From the NCBI GenBank assembly GCA_965203175.1, contig OZ241867.1, positions 1,376,001 to 1,440,000 on the forward strand: a stretch of 64,000 nucleotides of DNA, written 5' to 3'. Made by a program: the position numbers and the translations under genes. Under the pieces are notes generated by a model, which did not search any database, was not told where the DNA came from, and was given only the letters and a program-made list of their open reading frames with translations. Source of the DNA: Candidatus Latescibacterota bacterium (lineage in GTDB: Bacteria > Latescibacterota > UBA2968 > UBA8231). This document shows positions 6,220-38,890 of the stretch, piece by piece (positions within the stretch are counted from its first letter, which is position 1; each line of letters begins with the position of its first letter).

Positions 6220-6457
6220 TCGCTCTTGGTTTATAAGCTTCTGCGCCTAAAGGATGCAACGTGATTCCCGCCCTACTCGACCGCATTCTCGAACTAGCCT
6301 TCGACCCCCGAGTCGCCGCCTTCTTCGGCGTCTGCTTGGGGCTGTATATCCTGCGGGACGTGGCCCGTATATGTTTGCGGCTACTGGAGGCTTTTTGGCG
6401 GGGACGGAGGAAGAAGGGCGATGCGTGATGAGTGGTTAGACGCTATCCACTGACCAC

Positions 6458-7183: not shown

Positions 7184-7311
7184 TTCTCAGACAGTCGGTT
7201 AATAAGCCACCACGTCAGGACGGCTATGAGGAGGCCCGCCGCTAGCCCAAGGCTCCAAAAGAGGCACTCCTGCGAGGAAAGATTTTTGCGAAACTTCATA
7301 GCGCGATCTCC

Positions 7312-21126: not shown

Positions 21127-23571
21127 ATGGCTTTGAAAAAGTCCCAACTCTACTCCTCGCTGTGGCAAAGCTGCGACGAGTTACGTGGCGGCATGGACGC
21201 CTCGCAGTACAAGGACTACGTCCTGACGCTGCTGTTTATGAAGTACGTCTCGGACAAATACGCTGACGATCCGTACCCGCTCATTGAAGTTCCACCCGGC
21301 GGCAGCTTCGCGGATATGTCAAACCTCAAGGGCGACAAGGAGATCGGCGACAAGATCAACAAGATCATCGGTCAGCTCATCGAGGCCAATGACCAGCTCA
21401 AGGGCGTCATCGACCAAGCTGACTTCAACGACGAGAGCAAGCTCGGCACAGGCAAGGAGATGCAGGACCGACTCTCGAAGCTGGTCGCTATATTCGAGGG
21501 GCTCGACTTCCGCGCCAACCGGGCCGAGGGCGACGATCTGTTGGGCGATGCCTACGAATACCTGATGCGGCACTTTGCGACCGAGTCAGGGAAGAGCAAG
21601 GGGCAGTTCTATACGCCGGCCGAGGTCTCCCGCATTATGGCACAGGTGGTTGGGATCGGCTCGGGCACCCAACAGGATCAGACTATTTACGATCCGACTT
21701 GTGGCTCTGGCTCGCTCTTGCTCAAGGCTGCGGACGAAGCGCCGCACGGCATTACCGTTTACGGCCAGGAGATGGACAACGCCACCTATGCGCTGGCACG
21801 GATGAACATGATCCTGCATGGCCATGAGACCGCTGAACTTTGGCGCGGCAACACCTTGGCCGCTCCGTACTTCAAGAACCCGGACGACCGCCTTAAGACC
21901 TTTGACTTTGCCGTCGCTAATCCGCCTTTTTCCGCCAAGGCTTGGTCCAGCGGCCTCAATCCAGACCACGACGAGTACGGGCGCTTCGAATACGGCATCC
22001 CTCCGACGAAAAACGGTGACTACGCCTTCCTTTTACATTTAATTGCGTCGCTCAACAGCAAGGGCAAAGGCGCGATTATCCTGCCGCACGGCGTGCTGTT
22101 TCGCGGCAACAAGGAGGCGGACATCCGCAAAAAGCTCATCCGCCAGGGCTTCATCAAGGGCATCATCGGCCTGCCGGCCAATCTGTTCTACGGCACTGGC
22201 ATCCCCGCCTGTATCTTGGTTCTCGATAAAGAGAACGCCCACGCTCGTAGCGGTATCTTCATGATCGACGCGAGCAAGGGCTTTCTCAAGGACGGCAACA
22301 AGAATCGCCTGCGCGCACAGGACATCCACCAAATCGTCGATGTGTTCAACCGGCAGACTGAGTTGTCGCGCTATTCCCGCATGGTGCCGGTGGCTGAGAT
22401 CGCTAGTCCGGCTAACGACTACAATCTGAACATTCCGCGCTACATTGATTCCAGCGAATCGGAAGACCTGCACGACCTCGACGCGCATTTGCACGGCGGC
22501 ATTCCCGACCGCGATCTCGACGAGCTCGGAACCTATTGGGATGTCTTCCCTTCGTTGCGCCAAGCGTTGTTTGTCGGCAACGGACGGGCGGGCTACAGCG
22601 AGGCTCGCGTTGAGACGCCGCAGGTGAAGGCCGCCATTCTCGGGCATGGGGAGTTCAAGTCGTACGAGGCGCGGGTCGCGGTCGTTCTCGACGGTTGGTG
22701 CAAGACGCACGAGCCGGTTCTCAAGGGGCTGGAGATAGACGCCAATCCCAAGGACATCATCCACACTCTGGCGGAGGATCTGCTGGCGAGTTTTGCCGAC
22801 TTGCCGCTGCTTGATCCGTACGACGTGTATCAGCGGCTGATGGACTATTGGGACGAGGTGATGCAGGACGATGTGTATCTCATTACTGCGGACGGTTGGG
22901 AAGAGGCAGTCAAGCCGCGTGGGATCATTGAGGACAAAGAGAAGAAGATCAAGGAGACGCCGGACCTGACTGTCAAACGCAGGAAGTACAAGATGGACCT
23001 GATTCCTCCGGGGCTGATCGTCGCGCGTTATTTCGCTGATGAACAGGCCGCTGTCGAGGCGCTACAGGCCAAGCAGGAGGCCGCAGCCCGCGAACTGGAA
23101 GAGTTCGTCGAAGAGCACACTGGCGAGGAGGGCTTGCTGGAGGATGCGGTCAACGACAAGGACAAAGTCACCAAGGGCGGCGTGACGGAGCGGCTCAAGG
23201 CTATCCGGTACGAGCCGGAGAGCGACGAGGAACGCGATGCCCTCAAGCATTGTAAAAGTCTGATTGAGGGCGAGGCTAAGGCGGCTAAGGCCGTCAAGGA
23301 GGCCCAAGCCCGCTTGGATGAGCAGGTGCTGGCCCGCTACGGCGTGCTCACTGAAGCCGAGATCAAGACGCTGGTGGTTGAGGACAAGTGGTTTGCGAGC
23401 ATCCGGGGTGCTATCGAAGGTGAGGTGCAGCGGTTGACACAGCAGCTCGCCGGGCGGGTGAAGGAGTTAGAAGAGCGCTACGCCCGTCCGCTGCCGGAGT
23501 TGGAGCGGGAGGTGGAGGTGTTTGGTGATAAGGTCGAGGAGCACTTAAAGAGGATGGGGATTTCGCTATGA
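21127..23571 (+). CDS. hsdM: Type I restriction-modification methyltransferase subunit
   Basis: GQFYTP, DPTCGSGSLL, ANPPF (m6A motif IV), LPHGVLFRG, YNLNIPRY. Confidence 0.97.
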   Translation: MALKKSQLYSSLWQSCDELRGGMDASQYKDYVLTLLFMKYVSDKYADDPYPLIEVPPGGSFADMSNLKGDKEIGDKINKIIGQLIEANDQLKGVIDQADFNDESKLGTGKEMQDRLSKLVAIFEGLDFRANRAEGDDLLGDAYEYLMRHFATESGKSKGQFYTPAEVSRIMAQVVGIGSGTQQDQTIYDPTCGSGSLLLKAADEAPHGITVYGQEMDNATYALARMNMILHGHETAELWRGNTLAAPYFKNPDDRLKTFDFAVANPPFSAKAWSSGLNPDHDEYGRFEYGIPPTKNGDYAFLLHLIASLNSKGKGAIILPHGVLFRGNKEADIRKKLIRQGFIKGIIGLPANLFYGTGIPACILVLDKENAHARSGIFMIDASKGFLKDGNKNRLRAQDIHQIVDVFNRQTELSRYSRMVPVAEIASPANDYNLNIPRYIDSSESEDLHDLDAHLHGGIPDRDLDELGTYWDVFPSLRQALFVGNGRAGYSEARVETPQVKAAILGHGEFKSYEARVAVVLDGWCKTHEPVLKGLEIDANPKDIIHTLAEDLLASFADLPLLDPYDVYQRLMDYWDEVMQDDVYLITADGWEEAVKPRGIIEDKEKKIKETPDLTVKRRKYKMDLIPPGLIVARYFADEQAAVEALQAKQEAAARELEEFVEEHTGEEGLLEDAVNDKDKVTKGGVTERLKAIRYEPESDEERDALKHCKSLIEGEAKAAKAVKEAQARLDEQVLARYGVLTEAEIKTLVVEDKWFASIRGAIEGEVQRLTQQLAGRVKELEERYARPLPELEREVEVFGDKVEEHLKRMGISL

Positions 23572-24010: not shown

Positions 24011-24305
24011 ATGACCAAAGACATAGAGAAGGGCTACCCCTGGGCAGTCCTTTGATGATTATCTCAAGGAGCAGGGTGCCTATGAGAAAACCACTGAACT
24101 GGCCGTGAAGCGTGTGCTGGCCTTCCAACTTGCCGAGGCAATGAAGCAGCAAGGCATCTCCAAGGCGGAAATGGCGCGCCGCCTCCGTACAAGCCGGTCT
24201 CAGCTTGATCGCCTGCTTGATCCTGGGCATGACGGCGTGACAGTCGGCGTACTGGCGCGCGCTGCAAAAGCGGTTGGCCGTGAATTTCGGCTCGAACTTG
24301 CCTGA
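24011..24305 (+). pseudogene. XRE/HTH antitoxin with a +1 frameshift, preceded by a toxin C-terminal remnant
   Basis: SFDDYLKEQG...KRVLAFQLAEAMKQQGISKAEMARRLRTSRSQLDRLLDP; ATG 24011 is out of frame by one base, plausibly at cccc 24037-24040. Confidence 0.75.
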
Positions 24306-24450: not shown

Positions 24451-24665
24451 TACAAGCGAATAGATTTATCTGATTCTAAAACAAGAAGTTACATCAAACA
24501 GAAGAGTGTTAAGTGGGAATTGGGAAACAGAAAAAATTGAAAGCGGAGGAAGGGTGAACGGCAATTGCGGGAACAGTGGATGAGCATCAAGTCAAAATGG
24601 ACGAGGTAATAAACGATAGTTATATTTTTGCACCAATAAATAATATGAAGGAGGACATCAACATC

Positions 24666-24902
24666 ATGCCAGACCGTTATGTAACGAAGCATCCAGAAGG
24701 GTGGTCAGTGAAAGCACCGGGTGCCGCACGCGCAAGCAGCGTTCATGGGACGCAGCGGGAGGCCGAGGCGGCGGCGAAACAGATCGTGGCTAATCTTGGC
24801 GGCGGTGAGGTTCGTATCCAAGGACGCGATGGCAAGTGGCGTGATTCGGACACGGTCCCGCCGGGTAACGACCCGAATCCGCCACGCGACAAGAAGCACT
24901 AA
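24666..24902 (+). CDS. DUF2188 domain protein
   Basis: GWSVK...ASSVHGTQREA...EVRIQGRDGKWRDSDT..GNDPNPPRD; RBS aaggagg. Confidence 0.85.
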   Translation: MPDRYVTKHPEGWSVKAPGAARASSVHGTQREAEAAAKQIVANLGGGEVRIQGRDGKWRDSDTVPPGNDPNPPRDKKH

Positions 24903-24923: not shown

Positions 24924-25874
24924 ATGAGAATATTCATTTCATATTCGCACAAAGACCAAGCAGTACTGGAGCGGCTACATACCCATTTGGCTCCCCTTCA
25001 GTCTGAAGGGCTTATTGATACATGGTATGATCGCCAAATTCTGGCGGGTGGGAGGGTCGACGAGGAGATCGGCAAAGAACTTGAGTCCTGCGATCTCTTC
25101 CTGATGCTTGTCAGTCCTGATTTCCTAGCGTCTGACTATTGCGTCAATCGTGAAATGAGGCGAGCGCTTGAGCGCCATAGGGACGACGCGGCGCATGTTG
25201 TACCAATTATCGTCGAGCCCTGCGATTGGCTTTCTTCGCCACTAAGTGAACTCAAGGTCCTACCACTTGATGGGGAACCTATTAGCGAGTGGCCAAACCC
25301 AAACAACGCCTATCTCGATGTAGTCAGGGAACTTCGGCGTATTCTTGAAACTCGTAAGGCCGCTGTGCCTCCTATGGGACATGCTACGTTCTCCGAGGAG
25401 ACTAATGAAACGCGACCTGTGGCTTCCCGTTATAGGGTACAGCAAGACTTCGATGATATAGATCGTAGTGAGTTCCGAGAGACCGCGTTTGCGACTATCT
25501 GCGATTACTTCCAGCAGCAGATTGCCGAGATCAATACGGACAGCAAATTACGCGGGCGTTTTGTGCCCCGGGGGCCGAGTTCGTTCGGATGCACAATCGT
25601 CAATAGGGCACGTGAGTTGAACCGTGGTACGGCGCACATCACTGTACATCGCGGAGACGGTGCCCCTGGGCTTGGCGACATCTACTACTCGTTCTCGGAA
25701 AATGCCGCAGCCAATACTGCAAGTGGCATGCTCTACATTGAGTCGGACAATTACGAAATGTATCTCAGCAGTATGATGAACTTCGGCAGTGGGCGGGAAC
25801 GGCTCACTCCGGAAGAAGCGGCAGAGTGCTTGTGGGCTGATTTTATCGAGAAGGCAGGAGTTTCTTTGGGCTGA
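24924..25874 (+). CDS. TIR domain protein with an uncharacterised C-terminal domain
   Basis: IFISYSHKD, WYDRQILAG, SPDFLASDYCVNREM (catalytic Glu), VVPIIVEPCDW. Confidence 0.9.
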   Translation: MRIFISYSHKDQAVLERLHTHLAPLQSEGLIDTWYDRQILAGGRVDEEIGKELESCDLFLMLVSPDFLASDYCVNREMRRALERHRDDAAHVVPIIVEPCDWLSSPLSELKVLPLDGEPISEWPNPNNAYLDVVRELRRILETRKAAVPPMGHATFSEETNETRPVASRYRVQQDFDDIDRSEFRETAFATICDYFQQQIAEINTDSKLRGRFVPRGPSSFGCTIVNRARELNRGTAHITVHRGDGAPGLGDIYYSFSENAAANTASGMLYIESDNYEMYLSSMMNFGSGRERLTPEEAAECLWADFIEKAGVSLG

Positions 25875-26103: not shown

Positions 26104-27392
26104 ATGAATAGCGAGCAAGGGACAACGGGCAGCACCCTTGGAGGCGGACGCCGTGTGCCCGTGGAACCTGTTCCCGCCGGCTACAAGCGCACCGAAGTGG
26201 GCGTAATTCCGGAGGATTGGGAGCGTTCGAGCGTACATGCCATTGCCTCATCGACGCGCAACGCGATCGTTGGTGGTCCCTTTGGATCTGACCTCGTGTC
26301 CAAGGACTACGTGGCTCATGGCGTTCCGGTTATTCGTGGCCAGAATATGAGCGGCCAGTGGGTTTCGGGCAGTTTTGTTTTTGTTACGCCAACGAAAGCA
26401 AAATCACTCGAAGCGAATCTAGCGCATCCTGGAGACATTATCTTTACGCAACGAGGAACGCTTGGCCAAGTAAGCCTCGTTCCGGACAAACCCTTCAGCG
26501 CTTACTTGGTCTCCCAGAGCCAGATGAAGCTTTCGGTAAACCGCAAGGTGGCTGATCCGCTCTTCCTCTTCTATTTTTTTACAAGCTACGAACAGCAGAA
26601 ATCGATTCAGGGCAGGACGATTCAGACGGGAGTTCCGCATATTAATCTCGGAATTCTTCGTGAGATGCCCGTTCGACTTCCGCCATTAGCCGAGCAACGC
26701 GTCATCGCCGAGGCGTTGTCGGATGTGGATGGGTTGCTCACGGCGTTAGAGGCGCTGATCGCCAAGAAGCAGGCCGTCAAGCAGGCCGCCATGCGGCAAC
26801 TCCTCTCTGGCAAGACTCGTCTGCCGGGGTTTAGTGAGGCGTGGGAGACGAAGCGGATTGGCGACTTACTCTATTATGAACGACCAGATCGCTACATTGT
26901 GCAATGCACAGAGTACAGCGATTACGGCAATGTTCCAGTATTGACCGCAAACAAGTCGTTTGTTTTGGGCTACACCGACGAAGATTTCGGTATCTGTACT
27001 GATACTCCTGTTATCGTTTTTGACGATTTTACGACCGATTCAAGTATGCAACGTCTCCATTCAAAGTAAAGTCGTCAGCGATCAAGCTTCTCCGCGCCCG
27101 TCAGAATCAAGCACATCTTAGGTACGTTTTTGAACGTATGCAGTTGATTCGCTTCCCGTTGGGCGATCATAAGAGATACTATATATCGGATTATCAAAAC
27201 ATTGAGTTGGCCGTTCCCGGTTTCGGTGAACAACAGGCTCTTTCTTCAGTCCTCTCCGAAATGGACGCCGAGATCGCCACGCTGGAGCGACGCCGGGACA
27301 AGATTCGCGCCGTCAAGCAGGGCATGATGCAGCAGCTTCTCGTCGGTCGGGTGCGGCTGGTCGAACCAGACTTAGATCGTACGAGGAGTTAA
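26104..27392 (+). pseudogene. hsdS: Type I R-M specificity subunit with a frameshift near 27040 (ORFs 26104-27069 and 27138-27392)
   Basis: GYKRTEVGVIPEDW, LPPLAEQRVIAEALSDVD, KQAAMRQLLSGKTRLPGF; adding 1 nt at gattcaag restores FDDFTTDSKYATSPFKVKSSA through to KQGMMQQLL. Confidence 0.88.
27307..27351 (+). repeat. 45-bp hsdS 3' segment duplicated at 31728-31772
   Basis: 40/45 identity by manual comparison. Confidence 0.85.
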
Positions 27393-27468
27393 AGTCAGTC
27401 TCGCGAAAATGAGTCATCTTTACAGATCACACATGATGCTGTAAAAACAGACACTTGGAGGTGTGTTG

Positions 27469-28422
27469 ATGTCCAAGGACCTGAAGAGTCAGCAGGAGCA
27501 GGGTACCACCAGTATTAAGAACCGAGACTTTCCGAGCCTATACCAGAGTGCCGACAAAGCGTCACTTTCAGCACAACGACGTTATCTTTGTTTGCAGAAG
27601 AGCTATATCGGTTGTCTTATTTTGGGGAGCGTTGGTGCTGCCCTTGCGACGATAGTTCCGGTCGTAGCCGTCAAGTGGACTCACATTGTCTTGGCGATAG
27701 TTCTGGTAACTGGCGTCGTTCTCACTTGGGTATCCCGAGTACGTCGAGACGACAAGGTGTGGTTTGGCTGTCGCGCCATTGCTGAGTCCACAAAGACCGC
27801 TACATGGCGATTCATGATGAAGGCTGCACCTTTCAAAGATGACAGCATCGCTAGGCAGTCATTCATTGACCAGCTTCGACTAATACGAGAGGAGAGGCAT
27901 TTCAGTTCACACGATTTGGCGCAAAGCTTGGATGCAAACACTCAGTCTATTAGCGATTTCATGGATAATGTGCGACAGAAGCCCTTGAATAAACAGCGGA
28001 ACCTATATCTTGAGTCGAGACTTCGCGATCAAAAGGCTTGGTATTCAAATAAAGCCAAGTTCAATTCAAAGAAGGAATCTTGTTGGTTCTGGGTGGTTTT
28101 GGCACTACATGTGGTCGCCATTGCTTTTGCAATTATTCAGGCTGGTTCAGGTGGCTTACCGGTAAACATGGTTCCATTTTTGATGACCTGCGCTGCTTCT
28201 GCTATCGCATGGAGCCATATGAAGCGCTACGGCGAGTTAGCTCAGACCTACTCACTCTCTGCACAGGAGCTGAGAGACCAAGAAGCGATTGCCTCGGATA
28301 TAACGGAAGAGGCTGACTTCCTCGCACTTGTGGAGCAAGTCGAGGAGACCATTTCTCGTGAACATACCATGTGGTGTGCGCGCCGGAATGTGATAATCAG
28401 ACCAACCGACAAGGGAAACTAA
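27469..28422 (+). CDS. SLATT-family (DUF4231; SLATT_3 + SLATT_1-like) 4TM membrane effector
   Basis: FPSLYQSADKASLSAQRRY, W..CRAIAESTKTATWRFMM, RLRDQKAWYSNKA, EETISREHTMW; four hydrophobic segments; RBS ggagg. Confidence 0.85.
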   Translation: MSKDLKSQQEQGTTSIKNRDFPSLYQSADKASLSAQRRYLCLQKSYIGCLILGSVGAALATIVPVVAVKWTHIVLAIVLVTGVVLTWVSRVRRDDKVWFGCRAIAESTKTATWRFMMKAAPFKDDSIARQSFIDQLRLIREERHFSSHDLAQSLDANTQSISDFMDNVRQKPLNKQRNLYLESRLRDQKAWYSNKAKFNSKKESCWFWVVLALHVVAIAFAIIQAGSGGLPVNMVPFLMTCAASAIAWSHMKRYGELAQTYSLSAQELRDQEAIASDITEEADFLALVEQVEETISREHTMWCARRNVIIRPTDKGN

Positions 28423-28423
28423 C

Positions 28424-28825
28424 ATGGCTAAAAGGAAGATATTCGTGAGTTATGACTACGACAACGATAGGTATTACAAGAATCTACTCTTGGCATGGGA
28501 TAAGAACCGCGAATTCGATTTCGGCTTTAGTGATCAGTCCGCTGATGTGTCCATCCAGAGCACTAACGTAGTCGCCATCAAACGCGCGATTTCAGCCAAG
28601 ATCAATGCCTCTACTTACTTCCTGTGCCTTGTTGGCGAGAAGACCAGCAAGAGCTATTGGGTTGCATGGGAGATCGACAAGGCTAAGGAATTAAGAAAAA
28701 AGCTTGTTGCTGTGAAGATTTCGAATAGGAATGTGACTCCAAACGGACTCTTGAATGCCGGGGCATCGTGGGCTATGTCGTTCTCATTCGACGCCATCAA
28801 AGACGCCATCGAAGGCGCTTATTAA
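28424..28825 (+). CDS. ThsB-like TIR domain protein (DUF1863/MTH538-like)
   Basis: KIFVSYDYDND, IKRAISAKI, LCLVGEKT..SYWVAWEIDKA (catalytic Glu). Confidence 0.9.
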   Translation: MAKRKIFVSYDYDNDRYYKNLLLAWDKNREFDFGFSDQSADVSIQSTNVVAIKRAISAKINASTYFLCLVGEKTSKSYWVAWEIDKAKELRKKLVAVKISNRNVTPNGLLNAGASWAMSFSFDAIKDAIEGAY

Positions 28826-28862
28826 TGGTGATGAAACTGGAAACGTGACTAAGAAAATAGCC

Positions 28863-29837
28863 ATGGCAATAGATCGAAGCAGGAACCTATACATCGCGCA
28901 GACAGCCCTTCCTATACCATGCTTTTTTCCATCGGTTTCGAGCGTTAAGACAAACCTGATGCCCGTTGATTATGTAGAGCTTCTCGTTGCAGCCGGTCAT
29001 TCGCTCTTTCTGGTATCCGCCTATGACATTGCCCATTGCACCGATGATCAGCGCCCGCGTATGGATGCCGCGCTGACGAAAGGTAAAGAACACGATGCCG
29101 TGATCCTTATGGACAGCGGGAATTACGAAAGCTTTTGGAAAGACGACAAAGACTGGCAACCTGACAGGTTCCATGAAATTGCTGGTTCTAGCCATCATCA
29201 TCTCTGTTTCTGCTACGATAACCAGCAGCCGCCCAGCACCTCAGAGTCAATTGCCGAAGACGTAGTGGCCAGTGTTATCCGAGATCAGAAACACGCCCTC
29301 GAAACCGTAGCTCCGATAGTCCATGGGGACACAGCATTGCTATCAGATGCGGCCCGTAGAACGGCGGAGCAACTTTACCCCCTACTCTTGGCCGTCCCGG
29401 AACGTGAGCTTGGAGAAGGCATTATCGAGCGAACCCGAACAGTAAGGAAAATCCGAGAGGCGCTTGATACGCTAGAGGTATATTGCCCTCTTCATCTGCT
29501 CGGCACGGGGAATCCGCTTTCGATTATTGCTTACGCCTTAGCTGGAGCCGATAGCTTCGATGGTCTGGAATGGTGTCAGACCGTTGTCGACCACCAAACA
29601 GGTAGGCTGTTACATTTTCAACAATGGGACTTGATCCGCGATCAGACAGAATGGGGTCGATGCCCTGTACTACCGTATGTCCAATCGGTCTTGATGCACA
29701 ATCTAGATTTCTATCGCGAGTTTATGAAAAAGTTACACGAAGCAATACATCTCGAAGACACTGAAACTTTCATTCAACAGTACGTAACTAACGAACAGGC
29801 AGATCTTCTACTCCGGGCCAGCGAAGGAAGTGAGTAA
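28863..29837 (+). CDS. tRNA-guanine transglycosylase (TGT/DpdA)-fold protein, Cap10-like
   Basis: ILMDSGNYE (cf. TGT DSGG), PIVHG, LHLLGTGNP, GADSFDG, HNL; start may be GTG 28845. Confidence 0.8.
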   Translation: MAIDRSRNLYIAQTALPIPCFFPSVSSVKTNLMPVDYVELLVAAGHSLFLVSAYDIAHCTDDQRPRMDAALTKGKEHDAVILMDSGNYESFWKDDKDWQPDRFHEIAGSSHHHLCFCYDNQQPPSTSESIAEDVVASVIRDQKHALETVAPIVHGDTALLSDAARRTAEQLYPLLLAVPERELGEGIIERTRTVRKIREALDTLEVYCPLHLLGTGNPLSIIAYALAGADSFDGLEWCQTVVDHQTGRLLHFQQWDLIRDQTEWGRCPVLPYVQSVLMHNLDFYREFMKKLHEAIHLEDTETFIQQYVTNEQADLLLRASEGSE

Positions 29838-30534
29838 CGTGACAATGATTCGCTTTTCTCTTTCAGCTATCGAACATGCGATCCGGGATGTGTACAGCGT
29901 ACTTGACGAGTGTACTTCAGTCCCATGGAAGGAAAGTAGCGAAGACGATCTATGGCGAGAGCTTGTATTTTGTATCCTAGGTAGCCGAGTGAGGTTTGAA
30001 ACTGTCCACGCAGCGGTTGAAAGAATGGACGGTATGTGTTTGCTTTCTCGTCCACGACGAAACACACAGTTCGATCAATATGAAGAGGACACGATGACGG
30101 CCCTTTCTATGGGCTATCCATTCTATCGCGTCAGGGCTAATCAGATTCGCCGGGCAGCAGAATACCTATACAACTACTCACGGGGGTCAATTGGGGAGTT
30201 ACTGAATAGCGCTAGTGATGCTCACAGCGCGCGACGCCTTCTGACGGCTGAGGTAGTGGGTTTGGGACCCAAGCAAGCAAGCCTATTCCTCCGGAACATC
30301 GGTTATGCAAAGTCCATCGCGGTCTTAGACGTACATATTTTGACATATTTGAGTTGGATCGGTCTTGCTGAATCTTCGCTCAAATCGGTTCCGACATTAA
30401 GCAAGTACGAAGCACTGGAAGAATCTTTTATCCAACATGCCTATTCATTAGGATTCTCACCCGATCAATTCGATCTTGCGGTGTGGATTGTAATGAAAGT
30501 GGCAAAGGAGGAATCAAACGCATGGGGATCGTGA
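29830..30534 (+). CDS. HhH N-glycosylase/DNA lyase (archaeal OGG-like), Cap11-like
   Basis: ELVFCILG, YPFYRVRA, GLGPKQASLFLRNIGY (HhH Lys), AVLDVHIL (Asp), YEALE, DLAVW. Confidence 0.85.
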   Translation: MSNVTMIRFSLSAIEHAIRDVYSVLDECTSVPWKESSEDDLWRELVFCILGSRVRFETVHAAVERMDGMCLLSRPRRNTQFDQYEEDTMTALSMGYPFYRVRANQIRRAAEYLYNYSRGSIGELLNSASDAHSARRLLTAEVVGLGPKQASLFLRNIGYAKSIAVLDVHILTYLSWIGLAESSLKSVPTLSKYEALEESFIQHAYSLGFSPDQFDLAVWIVMKVAKEESNAWGS

Positions 30535-31118
30535 CTTTGGTATCTGGAGGATTCGATTCAACTCTTATGAGTCTTATGGCTCATGAGGAAGGGATCGCAC
30601 TATTCCCTCTCTTTATCGATTACGGGCAACTCGGAGTAAACAAGGAATGGTCAGCGTGTCAGCGACTTCACAAACAATTCGGTTTGCCACCGGTGACCTA
30701 TATGGATTTGTCTGGTTTTGGAAAAACAATCCCGAGCGGACTTACAGATAGCAGTTTACGCATCAACGAAGATGCCTTCTTGCCAGGTCGAAATCTTCTT
30801 TTTGTGCTAGCAGGAGCGGCTCATGCCTGCCAGACTCAAGCTAGTAGCGTCGCGCTTGGTCTACTCAATCCCGCCGACCACCTTTTTCCAGATCAGACCA
30901 AGGGGTTTGTAGAAGAGTGCGAAAGGATTATCGAGATGGCAATGGGCCGGAGGATTTCTGTTCTTATCCCACTGATCGAGTTCTCGAAGAGAGATATTAT
31001 GGTGATGGCTCGTGATCGGGGGATAAAGCATACCTATTCATGTCATGCAGGTGGGGACGAACCTTGCGGAGTGTGCATAGCATGCATTGAAATTATTAAT
31101 GCAAAGGAAAGGAGGTAG
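30522..31118 (+). CDS. queC: QueC-family 7-cyano-7-deazaguanine synthase-like PP-loop enzyme, Cap9-like
   Basis: SGGFDST, DYGQ, PGRNLLF, FPD, TYSC-x7-CGVCIAC Zn site; RBS ggagg; probably a defence-associated paralogue rather than the housekeeping enzyme. Confidence 0.88.
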   Translation: MGIVTLVSGGFDSTLMSLMAHEEGIALFPLFIDYGQLGVNKEWSACQRLHKQFGLPPVTYMDLSGFGKTIPSGLTDSSLRINEDAFLPGRNLLFVLAGAAHACQTQASSVALGLLNPADHLFPDQTKGFVEECERIIEMAMGRRISVLIPLIEFSKRDIMVMARDRGIKHTYSCHAGGDEPCGVCIACIEIINAKERR

Positions 31119-31120
31119 CC

Positions 31121-31618
31121 ATGGGTGGCGGACGCAGTAGTCGCGGTTTAACCCCAGACGAATTCAGGAGTGCTGAACAACGTGCCAAAAAATCTCTGAA
31201 GGAAGGCGATGGCAAGCACAATGTCTTTATCAGCTTCTCCTCGGATGATCTCGATGAAGTTAACCTGTTACGTGGTCAGGCTAAGAACGAAAACAGCAAC
31301 ATTGAGTTCAACGACCGGTCACTGAAAAAGCCGTTCGACAGTAAGAAAGCCGACTATATAAAACGAGGCATTCGGGACCGTATTCGTCAATCCTCCGTTA
31401 CTGTCGTGTATGTATCGGACAAAACCGCCGATAGTAAATGGGTGGACTGGGAAATACGAGAGAGTCTTGTCATGGGGAAAGGTGTCGTCGCCATGCACAA
31501 GGGCGACACCCCACCCAGACGTCTCCCAAAGGCTATCACCGACAACAATATTCCGGTTGTACCGTGGAACCAAGAACAGTTGGCAAAAGCCATTGAGACT
31601 CAGTTCGAGAACCGATGA
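31121..31618 (+). CDS. ThsB-like TIR domain protein with a Gly-rich N-terminal extension
   Basis: MGGGRSSRG..., NVFISFS, YIKRGIRDRIRQSSVTVVYVSDKT..SKWVDWEIRES; RBS aggagg, 2 bp after the queC stop. Confidence 0.9.
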   Translation: MGGGRSSRGLTPDEFRSAEQRAKKSLKEGDGKHNVFISFSSDDLDEVNLLRGQAKNENSNIEFNDRSLKKPFDSKKADYIKRGIRDRIRQSSVTVVYVSDKTADSKWVDWEIRESLVMGKGVVAMHKGDTPPRRLPKAITDNNIPVVPWNQEQLAKAIETQFENR

Positions 31619-31727
31619 AACAAACTAACAATTGGTTACAAACGGACGGTTCTAGATGCTGCTGGACTAAGTAGTAGAGTAAGAATCGTAGAAATCGGGC
31701 TAGAGTGACATTTATCGAGACACACCT

Positions 31728-31772
31728 GCGCCGTCAAGCTGATCATGATGCAGCAGCTTCTCGTAGGTAGGG
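31728..31772 (+). repeat. Degenerate copy of the hsdS 3' end
   Basis: gcgccgtcaagc...catgatgcagcagcttctcgt. Confidence 0.85.
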
Positions 31773-31820
31773 AGAGGTCTGCTCCAACCCGAGGCTCTAA
31801 CTAAAGAAGAATAAGGCGAC

Positions 31821-33416
31821 ATGAGCGAGAGCTAGAACATCGAATGGAAAGAGACGTGGCGGGACGAATACCTAAAATGGGTCTGCGGCTTCGCCAATGC
31901 TCAGGGCGGCGTACTGGAAATCGGCAAGAATGACCGGGGTGAGGTGGTCGGAGTGAAGGACGTTCTCCGACTGCTCGAAGAAATTCCCAATAAGGCCCAG
32001 GCACTGCTCGGCGTCGTGGTGGACGTGAACCTGAAGTCGGAAGACGGCGGGGAATATCTGGAAATCGCGGTTGATCCCTACCCCAATCCAATCAGCTACA
32101 AAGGCGAATTCTACTATCGCAGCGGCAGCACCAAGCAGGTGCTCAGAGGGGCGGCACTTAGCCGCTTCCTGTTGCAGAAATACGGCCGAACGTGGGACGA
32201 TGTGCCCCTGCCGGGCGTCGGCCTCAAGGACTTGGACGGTCGCGTCTTTGACGGGTTTCGTCAGCGGGGTGCTGACAGCGAACGCTTACCGCAGGACATA
32301 TTGGACGAATCCGACGAAGGGGTAATCGAGAGGCTTCAGTTGCGAGAGACGGGTTTCCTAAAGCGTGCCGCGGTCCTGCTCTTTCATCCAGCGCCGGACC
32401 GGTTCGTGATGGAAGCCTATGTGAAGATCGGCTATTTCCGTGGTTCGGAGTTGCTGTATCAGGACGTTATTGAAGGCGACTTGTTCACTCAGGTCGATCG
32501 GACGATGGACTTGCTGTACACGAAATACACGAAGGCATTGATTTCCTACGACGGCGTTTATCGCGTGGAGACCTTTCCCGTGCCGCGTGAAGCCATGCGC
32601 GAAGCGGTGATCAACGCCATCATTCACCGGGATTACTCCAGTCCTACCACAATTCAGATTCGCGTGTACGACGACCAGATCGCGATCTGGAATGCGGTGC
32701 AGTTGCCGTCTGAATGGGCCGCCGATCAACTTGCTGGAGAACTTTCGTCAAAGCCGTATAACCCGCGAATCGCCTACGCCTTCTTCCGCGCCGGAATGAT
32801 CGAAGCCTGGGGACGGGGCATCCGGCGGATTGCGGAAATGTGCAAGGAGGCTGGCAACCCCGTACCAGAGTGGAAGCTGCAATCTAGCGGCGACGGTCTG
32901 TGGTTGAGGTTCCCGTTCTCTGCTGCGTACCAAGCAGCCGATTCCTCTACTGGCAGTGCTACTACCCAAGAAACTACCCAAGAGGCTACCCAAGAAACTA
33001 CCCAAGAGGCTACCCAAGAAACTACCCAAGAACGCATTTTGGCCTTACTCAAAGCTGAGCCTGAGCTAACGCAGCGTATGCTCGCCGAACGCATTGGTCT
33101 TACGCCGGATGGGGTCAAATACCACTTGGCTAAGCTGCGAACTGCTGGAGCCATCCGACATGTTGGACCAACCAAGGCGGGTCGATGGGAAGTGCTGACT
33201 ACCCAAGAAACCACCCAAGAGGCTACCCAAGAAACTACCCAAGAACGCATTTTGGCCTTACTCAAAGCTGAGCCTGAGCTAACGCAGCGTATGCTCGCCG
33301 AACGCATTGGTCTTACGCCGGATGGGGTCAAATACCACTTGGCTAAGCTGCGAACTGCTGGAGCCATCCGACATGTTGGACCAACCAAGGCGGGTCGATG
33401 GGAAGTGCTCAAGTGA
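31821..33416 (+). pseudogene. Schlafen/AlbA_2 + HATPase_c_4 + duplicated HTH protein, amber stop at codon 5
   Basis: MSES*NIEWKETWRDEYLKWVCGFANAQGG is in frame with ORF 31944-33416; REAVINAIIHRDY; IEAWGRG. Confidence 0.8.
32961..33409 (+). repeat. 12-bp tandem repeats (TTQE/ATQE; 6 + 4 units) and a 213-bp tandem duplication of the HTH
   Basis: Units at 32961-33032 and 33198-33245; HTH copies start at 33033 and 33246. Confidence 0.92.
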
Positions 33417-33444: not shown

Positions 33445-36400
33445 ATGAGCGCCGTCGGCCAGCGGGAAATCCAAACCCAGCGGCGAGTGGTGGCGTTTTT
33501 CCAAGACGTGCTCGACTACAAGTACCTCGGTCATTGGCAGGACCGCCCCGGCAACCGCAACGTCGAGAGAGAGCATATCACCGACTGGCTCAAGCGCCAG
33601 GGGCACAGCGACAAAATCATCGACAGGGTGCTGTTCGAGCTGAACAGGGCAGCAGGGCTCGGCGGCAGCAAGACGCTCTACGACGCCAACCGCGAGGTCT
33701 ATGGCCTGCTCCGCTACGGCGTGAAAGTCCGGCCGGATGTGGGCGAACAGAACGTCACGGTCTGGTTGATCGACTGGGAGAATCCCGGCAACAACGACTT
33801 CGCCATCGCCGAGGAGGTGACGGTCCGCGGCGAGAATACCAAGCGGCCCGACCTCGTGCTCTACGTCAACGGCATTGCCTTGGGGGTGCTGGAACTGAAG
33901 CGCTCGACGGTGTCAGTGACTGAGGGCATTCGCCAGAATCTCGACAGCCAAAAGAAGGAATTCATCGAGCCGTTCTTCGCCACCGTACAACTCGTGATGG
34001 CGGGCAACGATACTGAGGGCCTGCGCTACGGCGTGATCGAGACGGCGGAGAAGTACTGGCTGCACTGGAAGGAAGCCGAGGTCCATCCGAGTGCTGACGA
34101 CAATCCGCTGCTCCGGGAGTTGAGCCAACTCTGCGGCAAGGAGCGGCTGATAGAAATCATCCACGATTTCATCGTCTTCGATGCGGGCGTCAAGAAGATC
34201 TGCCGCCACAACCAGTACTTCGGCGTAAAGGCGGCGCAGGCTCGCGTGAAGCGCCGCGAGGGCGGCATCATCTGGCACACCCAAGGCAGCGGCAAGAGCC
34301 TGACCATGGTCTGGCTGGCCAAGTGGATCCGCGAGCACGTCACAGACGCTCGGGTCCTACTCATCACCGACCGCACCGAACTGGACGAGCAAATCGAAAA
34401 GGTCTTCAAGGGCGTCAGCGAGGACATCCATCGCACGAGGAGCGGTGCCGACTTGGTGCGCGTGCTCAATGCCAGCGACGAATGGCTGATCGCTTCGCTG
34501 ATCCACAAGTTCGGCGCGGCAGAGGAAGGCGACGTCGATACGTTCGTCGAGGACATTCGCAGCCACCTGCCCAAAGACTTCCACGCCAAGGGCGATATTT
34601 TCGTCTTCGTAGATGAGTGCCACCGCACCCAGTCCGGTAAGCTCCACGAGGCAATGAAGGAATTGTTGCCGGGGGCCATGATGATCGGCTTCACCGGGAC
34701 GCCGTTGCTCAAGAGCGACAAGCAACAGAGTATCGAAACCTTCGGGCCGTACATCCACGCCTACAAGTACGACGAGGCGGTGAAAGACGGCGTGGTACTG
34801 GACTTGCGCTACGAGGCGCGCGACATCGACCAGAACATCACCTCGCAGACCAAAATCGATCAGTGGTTCGACATCAAGACTCGTGGGCTGACCGATGTGG
34901 CCAAGGCCCAGCTCAAGCAGCGCTGGGGCACGATGCGAAGAGTCCTGAGTGCGCGGGATCGGCTGGAGAAAATCGTCGCCGACATCCTATTCGACATGGA
35001 AACGCGCGACCGCCTCAAGAGCGGTCGTGGCAACGCCATACTCGTCTCCGGCAGTATCCGCTCAGCGTGCCGCTTCTTCGACATGCTCCAGCAGACTGAA
35101 CTGGCGGGCAAATGCGCCATCGTCACCTCGTACAGGCCAACCTTAGCGGACATCAAGGGCGAGGAGACCGGCGAGGGATACACCGAAAAACTACTCCGGC
35201 ACGCCACCTACCGTAAAATGCTGGCGGCGCACTTCAACGAGCCGGAAGACTCGGCGATGCACAAGGTCGAACGCTTTGAGCAGGAAGTGAAAAAGCGCTT
35301 CATCGACGAGCCAGGACAGATGAAGCTCCTGATCGTGGTGGATAAGCTGCTGACCGGCTTTGACGCGCCATCGGCGACCTATCTCTACATCGACAAGCAG
35401 ATGCAGGACCACGGCCTATTCCAAGCGATCTGCCGGGTCAATCGCCTCGACGGCGAAGACAAGGAATACGGCTACATCATCGACTACAAAGACCTGTTCC
35501 GGTCGCTGGAGCAATCCATTAAGGACTACACGGGCGAGGCATTCGACGGGTACGACAAGGCCGATGTGGAGGGTCTGCTGAAGGACCGGCTTCAGCAAGG
35601 TCGAGAGCGGCTGGAGGAGACACGCGAGGCGACCAAGGCGCTGTGCGAGCCGGTCGAGCCGCCGCACGACACTGCGGCCTATTTGCACTACTTCTGCACG
35701 GCCAGTAACGCTCGCCAGCTCAAAAACAATGAGCCGAAGCGCGTGGCGCTCTACAAGCAAGTCGCTGCGTTCCTACGCGCCTACGCCAACTTGGCCAACG
35801 AGATGTGTGAGGCCGGCTATTCCGATGCCGAAGCGCAGGAGATCAAAGCCGAAGTGGATCACTACGAGAAGGTGCGCCAGGAGATCAAGCTGGCCAGCGG
35901 CGACTACATCGACCTGAAGATGTACGAGCCAGCCATGCGGCACCTGCTTGATACGTACATCCGCGCCGAAGAGAGCGAGCAGCTATCAGGATTCGACGAT
36001 TTGACGCTCGTGCAACTGATTGTCGAGCGCGGGGAAGAGGCGGTCGAGGAACTGCCCGCAGGCATTCGCAAGAACCGCGAGGCGGTGGCTGAGACGATTG
36101 AAAACAACGTCCGGCGGCTCATTATCGACGAGACGGGAGTCAACCCCAGGTACTACGAGAAAATGTCGGAGCTGCTGGAAGCCCTGATCCGGCAACGCAA
36201 GCAAGAGGCGATTGACTACAAGGCGTATCTGGCGCGGATCGTCGATCTGACCAGAAAGACCAGTCGGCCAGAAACCCAAGCGTCCTATCCCGCCAGCATC
36301 AACAGCCCGGCATTGAGGGCGCTGTTCGACAACTTGGTGGTGCTAGTTCCGACAGCCCGAGAGCCACTCGACACTGAGCCGCCCGTTGATGTCAGGGAGG

Positions 36401-36570
36401 CGAAAGCGCTCACCCTAGATTCCGCCATCCGTCGGGTAAAGAAGGCGGACTGGCGGGGAAACAGGCTCAAGGAGCGCGAGGTCCGCAACGCCATCCACGC
36501 AGAACTCGGCGGCAACGAGAGCCTCGTAAACGCGATATTTGAGATCGTGAAGGCACAGAGTGAGTACTAA
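33445..36570 (+). CDS. hsdR: Type I restriction endonuclease subunit R
   Basis: RPDLVLYVNG...ELK nuclease; HTQGSGKS, DECHR, GFTGTP, LLTGFDAP, QAICRVNR. Confidence 0.97.
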   Translation: MSAVGQREIQTQRRVVAFFQDVLDYKYLGHWQDRPGNRNVEREHITDWLKRQGHSDKIIDRVLFELNRAAGLGGSKTLYDANREVYGLLRYGVKVRPDVGEQNVTVWLIDWENPGNNDFAIAEEVTVRGENTKRPDLVLYVNGIALGVLELKRSTVSVTEGIRQNLDSQKKEFIEPFFATVQLVMAGNDTEGLRYGVIETAEKYWLHWKEAEVHPSADDNPLLRELSQLCGKERLIEIIHDFIVFDAGVKKICRHNQYFGVKAAQARVKRREGGIIWHTQGSGKSLTMVWLAKWIREHVTDARVLLITDRTELDEQIEKVFKGVSEDIHRTRSGADLVRVLNASDEWLIASLIHKFGAAEEGDVDTFVEDIRSHLPKDFHAKGDIFVFVDECHRTQSGKLHEAMKELLPGAMMIGFTGTPLLKSDKQQSIETFGPYIHAYKYDEAVKDGVVLDLRYEARDIDQNITSQTKIDQWFDIKTRGLTDVAKAQLKQRWGTMRRVLSARDRLEKIVADILFDMETRDRLKSGRGNAILVSGSIRSACRFFDMLQQTELAGKCAIVTSYRPTLADIKGEETGEGYTEKLLRHATYRKMLAAHFNEPEDSAMHKVERFEQEVKKRFIDEPGQMKLLIVVDKLLTGFDAPSATYLYIDKQMQDHGLFQAICRVNRLDGEDKEYGYIIDYKDLFRSLEQSIKDYTGEAFDGYDKADVEGLLKDRLQQGRERLEETREATKALCEPVEPPHDTAAYLHYFCTASNARQLKNNEPKRVALYKQVAAFLRAYANLANEMCEAGYSDAEAQEIKAEVDHYEKVRQEIKLASGDYIDLKMYEPAMRHLLDTYIRAEESEQLSGFDDLTLVQLIVERGEEAVEELPAGIRKNREAVAETIENNVRRLIIDETGVNPRYYEKMSELLEALIRQRKQEAIDYKAYLARIVDLTRKTSRPETQASYPASINSPALRALFDNLVVLVPTAREPLDTEPPVDVREAKALTLDSAIRRVKKADWRGNRLKEREVRNAIHAELGGNESLVNAIFEIVKAQSEY

Positions 36571-37294
36571 GGCTAGAGGCCACCGCATCGACATTCGCGG
36601 AATCCCGGTAGAGGTCGTCCACAAGAGCATCAAGAACCTCCACATAGGCGTCTATCCGCCGAGTGGTCGGGTACGGGTGGCCGCCCCGCTGTGGCTCGAC
36701 GATGACGCCGTGCGTTTGGCCGTCATTTCGCGCTTGGGATGGATTCACCGAAAGCGAGCCGAATTTGCCCAACAGGATCGCCAATCCCAGCGCGAGTTCG
36801 TGACCGGCGAGAGCCATTACTTCCGGGGCCGGCGCTATCGACTCGACGTGATTGAGCACGATGGTCCACCGGCAGTTCGTCTGCTCAGTAATACGAAGAT
36901 GGCGTTGCGCGTCCGTCCGGGCACCGACCGGGACGCAAAGGAGGCGGTACTGGAGCGATGGTATCGCCGTCAACTCCGCGACCAGTTGCCAGAGCTGTGC
37001 GTCAAATGGGAGCAGAAGGTTGGAGTGACGGTCGATGAGGTGCGGATCAAGAAAATGAAGACCCTCTGGGGCTCCTGTAATATCGAAGCCAAGCGCATCT
37101 GGCTAAACCTCGAACTGGCCAAGAAGCCGACTTCGTGCTTGGAGTTAGTCCTCGTCCACGAAATGGTCCACTTGATCGAGCGCCACCACAACGAGCGTTT
37201 TCGCAAGCTGATGGACAGGTTCATGCCGCAATGGCGCGTTCATCGGGACGAACTGAATCAGCAGCCGCTCGCACACGAGGATTGGGCGTACTGA
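36560..37294 (+). CDS. M48/YgjP-like (DUF45) zinc metallopeptidase accompanying hsdR
   Basis: MKTLWGSC, HEMVHL, HHNERF. Confidence 0.92.
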   Translation: MSTKARGHRIDIRGIPVEVVHKSIKNLHIGVYPPSGRVRVAAPLWLDDDAVRLAVISRLGWIHRKRAEFAQQDRQSQREFVTGESHYFRGRRYRLDVIEHDGPPAVRLLSNTKMALRVRPGTDRDAKEAVLERWYRRQLRDQLPELCVKWEQKVGVTVDEVRIKKMKTLWGSCNIEAKRIWLNLELAKKPTSCLELVLVHEMVHLIERHHNERFRKLMDRFMPQWRVHRDELNQQPLAHEDWAY

Positions 37295-37315: not shown

Positions 37316-38890
37316 TCAATCGTCGCGGCGCAAGCGCTCGCGCTGCATCCATTCTTGCATGACGTGCTCGGAGCGGTTCAACAAGCTCAAGTAACCACCC
37401 TGTACCTCACTGCGAACCTTCCCAGACTTCGGCGGTTTGTTGGGCACTGCGTTGTAGCGCCCCCTCGCTTGAGTCACCGTCCGGCTCTTGATGTCCAGTG
37501 CGACTGTCAGCACGTGCTCCCGTTCCTCGGCTCCGTCTTGCAGCGCGCCAATCGACCAGATTGCGGTGTTGCCGTCGGCGCACTGGTCTGAATACGAGAC
37601 CACGCAGTGGTGCATTGCCCGGCCTTCAGCGGCCAGCTCCCAACTCGACAACAGCTCCTGCACTGTCCACCGTACCTTGCCCAGTTCGTCCGTCTCGTCC
37701 TCCAACTCCCACGGCCGGATTCCACACGGCTGCCAAGATTGAAAATTGACGTATTCCTCGCGGCTCAAGTGACCGTGCCAAGCCTCGACTTGGCGCAGGA
37801 GCTTGGTGGCGCTGCGGCCCTTCATGGTGAAATTGGGCTGCGGCGGAGGCGCTTCCTCTAAGCCGCCGACCTCCTGCACAATGCGGCGCGGGGCGAATTT
37901 CATGTTGTGGACATAATCGACAAGCGGCCCCACCCAAGTCGGGTCCAGCATCGCGTTATTGACTAGGAAAAGCACCACTGTACTCCAGAACTCGTCGTTT
38001 TCAAAATTGCGCCCTAGGCGGGTCTTGAGGGTCGCCTGCGCCAGAGGCCCATTGCCGCCCATGCCGAGGACCTGCGCCCAGCGCATGCTCTTTTCGACGC
38101 TGCCTAGTTGCGGCGAGCGCTGAAAGAGATGGGCCATGCGCCGCGTCAGTTTGACAGGCGCATCCAAGTCGCGGATGCTACCGCCAGAGGCCATGTGGAT
38201 AAACCACTCCTGCTGCCGCAACCCCTGCTCTTCAACGCCCCCGAACCAAGCCGAAACCATGGCATTGGGCACGGGGTAACGCGCCAACAAATAGCACGCC
38301 AGCGAGAAAACTTGGTCGCTGCGCCGGGGATGGCCGCCCTTGGGGACGACGCAGCGCCACTCCTCTAGGGGGCGAATCCAGTGGCGGTGGTGACGGGCCA
38401 AGGCCAGAAGACAGTGGGTTAGGTGTCGGTAAGGCCCCGATTTATAGATGCTCTTGGCCGTTATCACATTCATGAATTCATCGACGTGGAAAATCAGGCG
38501 TTGGAACGCCTTGTGTGCCTCCGCGTCTTGCCCGAGCCATTCTACGACAAAGCCCTTCCAGGGGAGCTCGCCAGCGGCGAGTTGCGCTAGGGTCTGCTGG
38601 CGTTTCTCCGTCAGCGGGCGCTTAGGCACTAGTGCCTCGGCCAAGTGGTGCTCCAGCCGGTTAGTGAACTGCTCCTGATTTAGGCCGTCGTCCATGCCGC
38701 TGAGCCGACACCAGTGCTGGTAGGATCTGAGCGATTCAAAGCCCACCTTGGCCAACTCCTCCCAAGTCGGGACGACCGTTGTATCGGCTGCGGTTTGCGT
38801 CAATCCTGTCAACTGTCTCACTCCCCTATTATTACAACTTGACAAAGACGGCCACCAAGCCGCTACAATGTCAAGTAGAGCCCCATTCAT
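37316..38890 (-). CDS. PcfJ domain-containing protein
   Basis: LLARYPVP, VEAWH, ELAAEGRAMHHCVVSY, QARGRYN; start uncertain, possibly near 38770. Confidence 0.8.
   Translation of the reverse strand: MNGALLDIVAAWWPSLSSCNNRGVRQLTGLTQTAADTTVVPTWEELAKVGFESLRSYQHWCRLSGMDDGLNQEQFTNRLEHHLAEALVPKRPLTEKRQQTLAQLAAGELPWKGFVVEWLGQDAEAHKAFQRLIFHVDEFMNVITAKSIYKSGPYRHLTHCLLALARHHRHWIRPLEEWRCVVPKGGHPRRSDQVFSLACYLLARYPVPNAMVSAWFGGVEEQGLRQQEWFIHMASGGSIRDLDAPVKLTRRMAHLFQRSPQLGSVEKSMRWAQVLGMGGNGPLAQATLKTRLGRNFENDEFWSTVVLFLVNNAMLDPTWVGPLVDYVHNMKFAPRRIVQEVGGLEEAPPPQPNFTMKGRSATKLLRQVEAWHGHLSREEYVNFQSWQPCGIRPWELEDETDELGKVRWTVQELLSSWELAAEGRAMHHCVVSYSDQCADGNTAIWSIGALQDGAEEREHVLTVALDIKSRTVTQARGRYNAVPNKPPKSGKVRSEVQGGYLSLLNRSEHVMQEWMQRERLRRDD

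Follow-up and report, generated by a model that had tools for sequence, protein, structure and literature searches.

In type IV CBASS (systems of anti-phage defence that signal by cyclic oligonucleotides), the QueC-like protein Cap9 puts 7-amido-7-deazaguanine (NDG) on Gly2 of CdnD, and the 176-Da adduct has been demonstrated (Wassarman et al., 10.1101/2025.04.06.647259). The cGAS/DncV-like nucleotidyltransferases (CD-NTases) of type IV CBASS all begin M(G/S)G(G/S)GG, the substitution G2D abolishes defence, and Cap10 binds the tagged CdnD tail (10.1101/2025.04.06.647259). A preprint of December 2025, in the part accessible, reports Thoeris operons with cap9, cap10 and cap11, gives AlphaFold3 models of ThsB with Cap10 (interface predicted template modelling score, ipTM, 0.79) and with Cap9 (ipTM 0.62), suggests a similar mechanism, and assigns the pairing of TIR and SLATT to type VII Thoeris, with canonical cyclic ADP-ribose (cADPR) as the signal (10.64898/2025.12.03.692087). 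The present analysis concerns a six-gene cassette in a 64,000-nucleotide stretch of a Candidatus Latescibacterota genome (assembly GCA_965203175.1, contig OZ241867.1, positions 1,376,001 to 1,440,000; hereafter the window). Its last gene encodes a ThsB-type TIR protein (TIR2) with a glycine-rich N-terminal tail directly downstream of a QueC-like gene, and Gly2 of this protein is quite probably modified in a QueC-dependent manner, by analogy with type IV CBASS.

That modification had been put forward in an original prediction made from the window's sequence alone, on the background that defence QueC proteins are reported to conjugate a 7-deazaguanine base to the N-terminal Gly of a partner. This background is accurate for Cap9, for which the NDG adduct has been shown, but overstated for QatC, for which modification of the partner QatB is, in the published account as available, inferred from loss of defence in a G2D mutant and from structures. 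The proposed extension of the modification to TIR enzymes is kept here as a prediction but is not new, as the idea of a TIR protein served by Cap9 and Cap10 is already in print as a prediction in the accessible part of the preprint (10.64898/2025.12.03.692087).

The glycine tail of TIR2 and the conserved helper proteins

TIR2 starts at ATG 31121, separated by two nucleotides (cc) from the QueC stop codon (TAG 31116-31118) and 5 nt downstream of an AGGAGG box (31110-31115), as first noted. Upstream of this ATG the frame is open for seven codons as far as a TAA, none of them a start codon; downstream, ATG, GTG or TTG does not recur in frame before codon 96, which already belongs to the TIR fold. 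A downstream start was therefore ruled out, and no start other than ATG 31121 can be used. The protein reads MGGGRSSRGLTPDEFRSAEQRAKKSLKEGDGKH, then NVFISF, with the first TIR strand from residue 34. Since the Pfam ThsB_TIR match begins at residue 36 and the matches to TIR and ThsB chains of the PDB begin at profile positions 34-36, the extension, in a protein that begins MGGGRSSRGLTPDEF, measures 33 residues, against the roughly 30 read originally. The other TIR protein of the cassette (TIR1) begins MAKRKIFVSY, has its ThsB_TIR match from residue 7 and carries no extension, also in agreement with the first reading.

Conservation of the tail was followed in close homologues and in whole loci. 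Among the 120 closest database homologues of TIR2 (73-97% identity), 113 begin MG and one begins GTG-Gly, which places Gly2 in 114/120; the start is MGGGGG in 81 and MAGSGG in two, three are shorter gene calls from a downstream start, and another was called longer and contains MGGGGGGG internally. One homologue with 97% identity has the same N-terminus as the window copy. A scan of species-representative genomes returned 29 loci (given below by L numbers), with a QueC homologue directly upstream in 22 and the whole TIR2 N-terminus present in 21. In these 21 loci, which come from many phyla, residue 2 is Gly in 20 and Ala in one (L004), and residues 2-3 read GG in 19. When the window and 20 loci were aligned (21 sequences), position 2 was Gly in 20 and position 3 in 19; the acceptor residue named in the prediction is nearly invariant in these QueC-adjacent copies. 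Two further QueC-adjacent copies in the window's phylum begin MGGIGSGRGL. The family consensus fits the hexapeptide M(G/S)G(G/S)GG, from which the window and other QueC-adjacent copies such as L006 (MGGYRR) and L015 (MGNKSN) deviate. Over the 21 loci the glycine codons are GGT (50), GGC (39), GGA (30) and GGG (3), a synonymous variation which indicates selection at the protein level. In 20 of the 21 loci TIR2 starts 2-4 nt behind the stop codon of QueC and is preceded by a GGAG-type box.

Relatives that lack an adjacent QueC lack the tail as well: it is present in 0/13 (L020, L021, L024, L025, L037 and L044-L051; L029, with an ambiguous start, and the truncated L019 and L026 were left out of this set). 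Four of them (L020, L021, L024, L025) form a single clade and begin MA(K)RQRTIKFPP, the viral L037 begins MAGKKRVFLSF, and in the eight distant paralogues L044-L051 (30-35% identity), which come from the window's phylum, the leader is about 3-10 residues long and QueC is absent from the surrounding 1.5 kb. Tail and helix are strictly tied to QueC adjacency. The wider family gave 629 hits at E up to 0.001. Of the top 150 representatives after clustering at 50% identity, 116 could be aligned over the first strand; among these, an MG[GS] start was found in 34/73 proteins with a leader of at least 20 residues vs 0/41 with a leader of 12 residues or fewer, a count known from proteins alone.

In an AlphaFold2 (AF2) model of TIR2 (mean predicted local distance difference test score, pLDDT, 79.9), residues 1-9 score below 50, no secondary structure precedes residue 12, and a helix over residues 12-28, itself scoring about 51-59 at most, is followed by the TIR fold. 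In the 21 sequences the conserved helix positions are hydrophobic (15, 18, 22, 26) or basic (21, 23, 27), an amphipathic pattern; after helix alpha1 of CdnD, the predicted helix 12-28 is the candidate docking helix for QueC and TGT. The TIR domain matches the PDB TIR 8fz9 at 1.7e-17 as well as the ThsB chains 6lhy and 9b7d, and W107, V108, W110, E111 and I112 (WVxWEI motif) are invariant in 26 sequences; E111 of this motif is taken to be the catalytic Glu of TIR enzymes. Residues 1-36 of TIR2, searched with phmmer against PDB sequences, gave no match at E up to 10, with a query too short to inform.

The QueC-like open reading frame (ORF) begins at ATG 30522 behind an AGGAGG box of its own. Residues S8, G9, G10, D12, S13, F122 and D124 and four Cys (C174, C182, C185, C188) are invariant in 20 homologues. 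S8-S13 (SGGxDS, the pyrophosphate motif SxGxDS) align to S18-S23 of Cap9, including S18, D22 and S23; F122 and D124 align to Cap9 Y115 and D117, the aromatic and Asp pair that contacts NDG; and the four Cys are C-terminal and of Zn-site type. As a single sequence against the PDB, the protein matches Cap9 (9nto_B) at 1.5e-12 and QueC (2pg3) at 9.9e-12. When it was tested as a canonical QueC (preQ0 synthase) on the NCBIfam equivalog TIGR00364, it scored 109.5 bits, under the cut-off of 150.3, whereas two other genes of the host pass this cut-off (158.7 and 152.2 bits). A host QueE-like gene of the radical S-adenosylmethionine type adjoins one of these host QueC genes, and a QueD-family gene is present; with these QueC, QueD-family and QueE-like genes the substrate 7-carboxy-7-deazaguanine (CDG) should be available in the host, to judge by gene content.

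The start of the TGT-like protein was set at ATG 28863 in place of the upstream ATG 28755, the homologues beginning MATDRSRE. Its best sequence match in the PDB is Cap10 (9ntn_A), and a Foldseek search with its AF2 model (pLDDT 87.4) gave Cap10-CdnD (9ntn, E 2.9e-13) as the top match, canonical TGTs following at about 2e-10. On the general TGT model the protein scored 26.8 bits, under the cut-off of 47.6. D81 and S82 (in a weak segment of the alignment), H208 and D230 align to Cap10 D73, S74, H226 and D248 and are invariant in 20 homologues. The OGG homologue scored 101.6 bits on the NCBIfam N-glycosylase/DNA lyase model, below the cut-off of 183; its start may lie at an ATG a few codons downstream of 29830.

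Gene order is kept across the 21 loci. TGT, QueC and TIR2 are present in 21/21 operons (TIR2 is frameshifted in L027) and OGG in 19/21, with none found in L006 and L015. A SLATT effector accompanies them in 20/21, in a long form in 17 and, in L003, L023 and L027, as a shorter DUF4231/SLATT protein; in the L028 operon no such effector could be recognised. TIR1, which keeps the WxWEI glutamate in the window, is intact in 8 operons, interrupted by an in-frame stop in 2 (L007, L010), reduced to a remnant in 1 (L001) and not found in 10. As TIR2 is constant and TIR1 often lost or broken, TIR2 appears to be the constant signalling enzyme and TIR1 an optional extra. The TIR1 homologues with in-frame stops lie at 4308-4709 of L007 and 4257-4652 of L010, and the C-terminal remnant of L001 at 4595-4705, in operons that are otherwise intact.

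Several irregular copies were seen. The two OGG-less operons, L006 and L015, carry the most degenerate tails (MGGYRRGSE and MGNKSNDYS); as these loci are related to each other, loss of OGG and degeneration of the tail count as a single event. In L022 (= L043), at about 6374-7336, the QueC frame runs into TIR2 at about residue 54, and this in-frame join indicates that an in-frame deletion took the N-terminal part of TIR2 as far as the first strand, tail and helix included; this degenerate remnant has neither TGT nor OGG nor SLATT genes nearby. Two database proteins may be fusions, or else neighbouring genes called as one: P0173 (283 amino acids (aa)), with a TGT-like N-terminus and then a TIR, and P0123 (226 aa), with a QueC C-terminus and then a tailed TIR.

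Proposed mechanism and competing explanations

The cassette at 27463-31618 would be a Thoeris-type (TIR plus SLATT) anti-phage system bearing three type IV CBASS helper genes. Methionine aminopeptidase would take Met1 off TIR2, and the QueC-like enzyme would adenylate host-made CDG with adenosine triphosphate (ATP), after which CDG would be coupled to the free Gly2 amine to leave an N-terminal NDG adduct; in this step the flexible glycine tail is predicted to reach the active site with the amphipathic helix 12-28 docked on the enzyme. The TGT-like protein would then hold the NDG-tagged tail in its base pocket and so keep TIR2 primed and inactive. In an alternative role it may transfer TIR2 to some target, a transfer that the OGG-like protein may reverse. 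Infection would release TIR2 to make a cyclic-ADP-ribose-type signal from nicotinamide adenine dinucleotide (NAD+), upon which the SLATT membrane effector would open, with the tail-less TIR1 as an optional, ungated second TIR. From CdnD, Cap9 and Cap10 we infer the adduct, the complex that would sequester TIR2, what kind of signal is made and what OGG and TIR1 do; which genes are present, the conservation of tail and helix and their tie to QueC adjacency, the active-site residues and the host CDG genes are direct observations.

Several observations weigh against this interpretation. As a family profile the QueC-like protein is slightly nearer to canonical QueC (2pg3, 2.1e-21) than to Cap9 (4.2e-17). 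The sequence alignment of the TGT-like protein with Cap10 is significant over about one fifth of its length only (residues 176-238), and Cap10 D122 and K154 could be mapped on it by neither single-sequence nor family-profile alignment. The window tail, MGGGRS, departs from the published M(G/S)G(G/S)GG at positions 5-6 (Arg, Ser), and its helix has F15 and A18 where Leu stands in 15/21 and 17/21 sequences, so that the window copy, being off consensus in tail and helix, may be a weaker substrate. The contrast with QueC-less relatives includes few independent comparisons, because L020, L021, L024 and L025 are one clade. In the literature on deazaguanylation, on Cap9 and Cap10 and on Thoeris, no mass or structural evidence of an adduct on any TIR was found.

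The three helper families have a nucleic-acid ancestry, and QueC, TGT and OGG might accordingly put 7-deazaguanine into, or take it out of, DNA or tRNA in a Dpd-like manner, the tail of TIR2 being unrelated; the better family-profile score on canonical QueC and the DNA-glycosylase fold of the OGG homologue would fit such a function. It is made distinctly improbable by the presence of the tail in 21/21 QueC-adjacent loci with a whole N-terminus vs 0/13 QueC-less relatives, by a QueC under the canonical equivalog cut-off in a host with two QueC genes above it, and by a TGT that fails the general TGT model and whose best matches in both sequence and structure are to the protein-binding Cap10. If the glycine run were instead a mere flexible, low-complexity leader or an artefact of annotation with no chemical role, the low pLDDT of the first nine residues, the want of secondary structure before residue 12 and the three homologues called from a downstream start would be as expected. 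That explanation is hardly credible against a window with no alternative TIR2 start, a Gly2 that is near-invariant despite varying codons, and a motif matching those found experimentally essential in CdnD and, in the account available for it, QatB.

A different division of labour among the six genes is unlikely. TIR2 might be tagged and nevertheless act as a terminal, NAD+-depleting effector, some bacterial TIRs being NADases, or SLATT and TIR1 might form the real Thoeris unit beside a separate TGT-OGG-QueC-TIR2 system; the SLATT and TIR1 genes abut with a 1-nt gap, which resembles two-gene type VII Thoeris as described in the accessible part of the preprint. Yet SLATT stays directly upstream of TGT-OGG-QueC-TIR2 in operons where TIR1 is absent (10/21) or broken or a remnant (3/21), and the identities of TGT, QueC and TIR2 co-vary (Spearman 0.74-0.91 over the window and 18 loci, which are related sequences and not independent). 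QueC-dependent modification of Gly2 in a TIR-SLATT system is the preferred explanation.

Layout, genomic setting and spread of the cassette

The features of the cassette are collected in Table 1. The six genes (SLATT, TIR1, TGT, OGG, QueC, TIR2) are co-directional and tightly packed, neighbours overlapping or being separated by 2-bp gaps. The protein of the first gene is also matched by the NCBIfam models SLATT_3 and SLATT_1. A promoter and terminator scan of 27000-32200 found no sites on either strand, which fits a single transcription unit, the scan being a weak one.

Table 1. Features of the TIR-SLATT cassette in the window, with positions counted from the first nucleotide of the window
Feature	Position	Strand	Basis
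SLATT protein, predicted membrane effector, two SLATT domains, 319 aa	27463-28422	+	Pfam SLATT_3 8.7e-32, SLATT_1 6.2e-32
TIR1, ThsB-type TIR without N-terminal extension, 133 aa	28424-28825	+	Pfam ThsB_TIR 1.2e-19; PADLOC ThsB
TGT-like protein, Cap10-like, 324 aa	28863-29837	+	Pfam TGT 3.6e-10; PADLOC TGT 8.1e-25
OGG-type N-glycosylase/DNA lyase homologue, Cap11-like, 234 aa	29830-30534	+	Pfam Ogg-HhH 2.4e-27
QueC-like protein, Cap9-like, 198 aa	30522-31118	+	Pfam QueC 1.4e-33; PADLOC QueC 9.1e-28
AGGAGG ribosome-binding site of TIR2, within the last QueC codons	31110-31115	+	direct reading
TIR2, ThsB-type TIR with glycine tail	31121-31618	+	Pfam ThsB_TIR 8.9e-25
TIR2 tail MGGGRSSRGLT, Gly2 the predicted 7-deazaguanine acceptor	31121-31153	+	alignment, AF2
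Predicted amphipathic helix of TIR2, residues 12-28, PDEFRSAEQRAKKSLKE	31154-31204	+	AF2 pLDDT about 51-59
TIR2 ThsB-type TIR domain, residues 34-165, stop included	31220-31618	+	Pfam ThsB_TIR 8.9e-25

The cassette has a guanine-plus-cytosine content of 47-50% vs 57-61% in its flanks and sits between the broken hsdS (26104-27392) and the hsdR (33445-36570) of a type I restriction-modification (R-M) system, the hsdM of which lies at 21127-23571. Two ORFs make up this hsdS, one of 321 aa and one of 84 aa, the latter with the C-terminal conserved helix. The second target-recognition domain may have suffered a frameshift or a stop, and the gene is possibly a pseudogene. In L002, L004, L006 and L016 the cassette is likewise followed by an orthologous hsdR (68-82% identity), with hsdS upstream in all four; in L001 and L015 an hsdS or hsdM lies upstream of the cassette and no hsdR match was found. 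In one orthologous type I R-M family the interval from hsdS to hsdR acts as a variable cargo slot, occupied by the cassette in the window, L002, L004, L006 and L016. The cargo of this slot in L020 is different, with TPR and DUF1828 genes, a gene without family name, a tail-less TIR and a DUF4062-HATPase_c_4 gene, and in L025 a tail-less TIR lies upstream of a HATPase_c_4-type gene with an hsdR of the same family. The hsdR of the window is followed by a YgjP-like metallopeptidase gene (36560-37294).

A close TIR2 (at least 70% identity) was found in 5/168 genomes of the window's own phylum, the window's own not counted, and in 0/30 other genomes of its genus. This patchy distribution across the phylum points to horizontal transfer. 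Beyond it, the TIR2-operon family extends over many phyla with 54-85% identity to the window TIR2. Viral contigs yielded only two TIR2 relatives, one cut at a contig end and the other tail-less and without QueC, and with just these two there is no sign of phages carrying the cassette.

Other genes of interest lie close by. A DUF2188 protein (24576-24902, Pfam 1.9e-18) is encoded directly upstream of a further ThsB-type TIR (24924-25874, 316 aa, PADLOC ThsB 6.5e-67), and a TIR 72% identical to the latter is also found upstream of the L001 cassette; DUF2188 is a predicted Thoeris effector in the accessible part of the preprint (10.64898/2025.12.03.692087). The HATPase_c_4/winged-helix gene at 31944-33416 contains a 213-bp tandem duplication (two copies, 99% identical, 32986-33409) that repeats a TQE-repeat linker and a winged helix-turn-helix domain, with shorter 12- and 24-bp TTQE repeats at 32961-33032. 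The defence region is flanked by a small ORF (24105-24305, 66 aa) that looks helix-turn-helix-like by eye and by a PcfJ-like protein encoded on the minus strand at 37316-38890 (Pfam 4.5e-11).

Implications and relation to described systems

If TIR2 is modified as proposed, N-terminal deazaguanylation would be a general switch of immune signalling enzymes, beyond the CBASS cyclases. The six-gene operon is a compact test case with a natural internal control in the tail-less TIR1. A further step, possible though doubtful at present, is that glycine tail and amphipathic helix make up a portable deazaguanylation tag that has been grafted in evolution onto the unrelated immune proteins CD-NTase, TIR and QatB. 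On this view, since 34 clusters among the top 150 (50% identity) begin with the tail, NDG gating could be a major form of Thoeris regulation and not a rarity, and in two-TIR cassettes the gated TIR and the free one would act on a single SLATT pore as two separately controlled inputs.

Among the described systems, QatABCD is similar in combining a QueC-family enzyme with a partner that has a flexible Met-Gly N-terminus (QatB, MGTS) and in which, in the account available, G2D loses defence; it is without TGT or OGG, both of which the window operon has. Membership in QatABCD was ruled out, as no QatA ATPase, QatB or QatD TatD nuclease was found in the operon or among its direct neighbours. The survey of the QueC family makes no mention of TIR, and a search of the literature for SLATT combined with QueC (and TGT, TIR) returned nothing relevant.

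Type IV CBASS (a CD-NTase and an effector with Cap9, Cap10 and in some cases Cap11) shares with the window cassette the same three helper genes, a membrane-type effector, a signalling enzyme with a Gly-rich N-terminal tail (followed in CdnD by a helix, as predicted for TIR2), and, where they could be mapped, the residues of Cap9 and Cap10 that are conserved in the window QueC and TGT. The signalling enzyme of type IV CBASS is a CD-NTase, whereas that of the window is a TIR, and OGG is present in 19/21 of the operons examined here vs about one third of type IV CBASS operons (10.1101/2025.04.06.647259). Membership in type IV CBASS was also ruled out, since none of the six operon proteins has a nucleotidyltransferase/SMODS domain (CD-NTase).

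Type VII Thoeris (ThsB with the SLATT effector ThsH) resembles the window in the pairing of a ThsB-type TIR with a SLATT membrane protein. In the accessible description it consists of two genes, to which the window adds three helpers and a second TIR; in the window it is the domain pairing alone that is seen. Nearest of all are the Thoeris operons of the preprint, in which, as far as its accessible part goes, a ThsB-type TIR and an effector likewise share an operon with QueC-, TGT- and OGG-like genes, and the related locus L003 comes from a genome of Pseudomonadales, the taxonomic order of the example modelled there. The accessible part proposes a CdnD-like encounter of the TIR with Cap9 and Cap10, and is silent on the glycine tail and the putative docking helix, on a second TIR without tail and on the placement in a type I R-M system (10.64898/2025.12.03.692087). 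To this account the window adds the degree of conservation of tail and helix, the contrast with QueC-less relatives, the optional TIR1 and the type I R-M slot.

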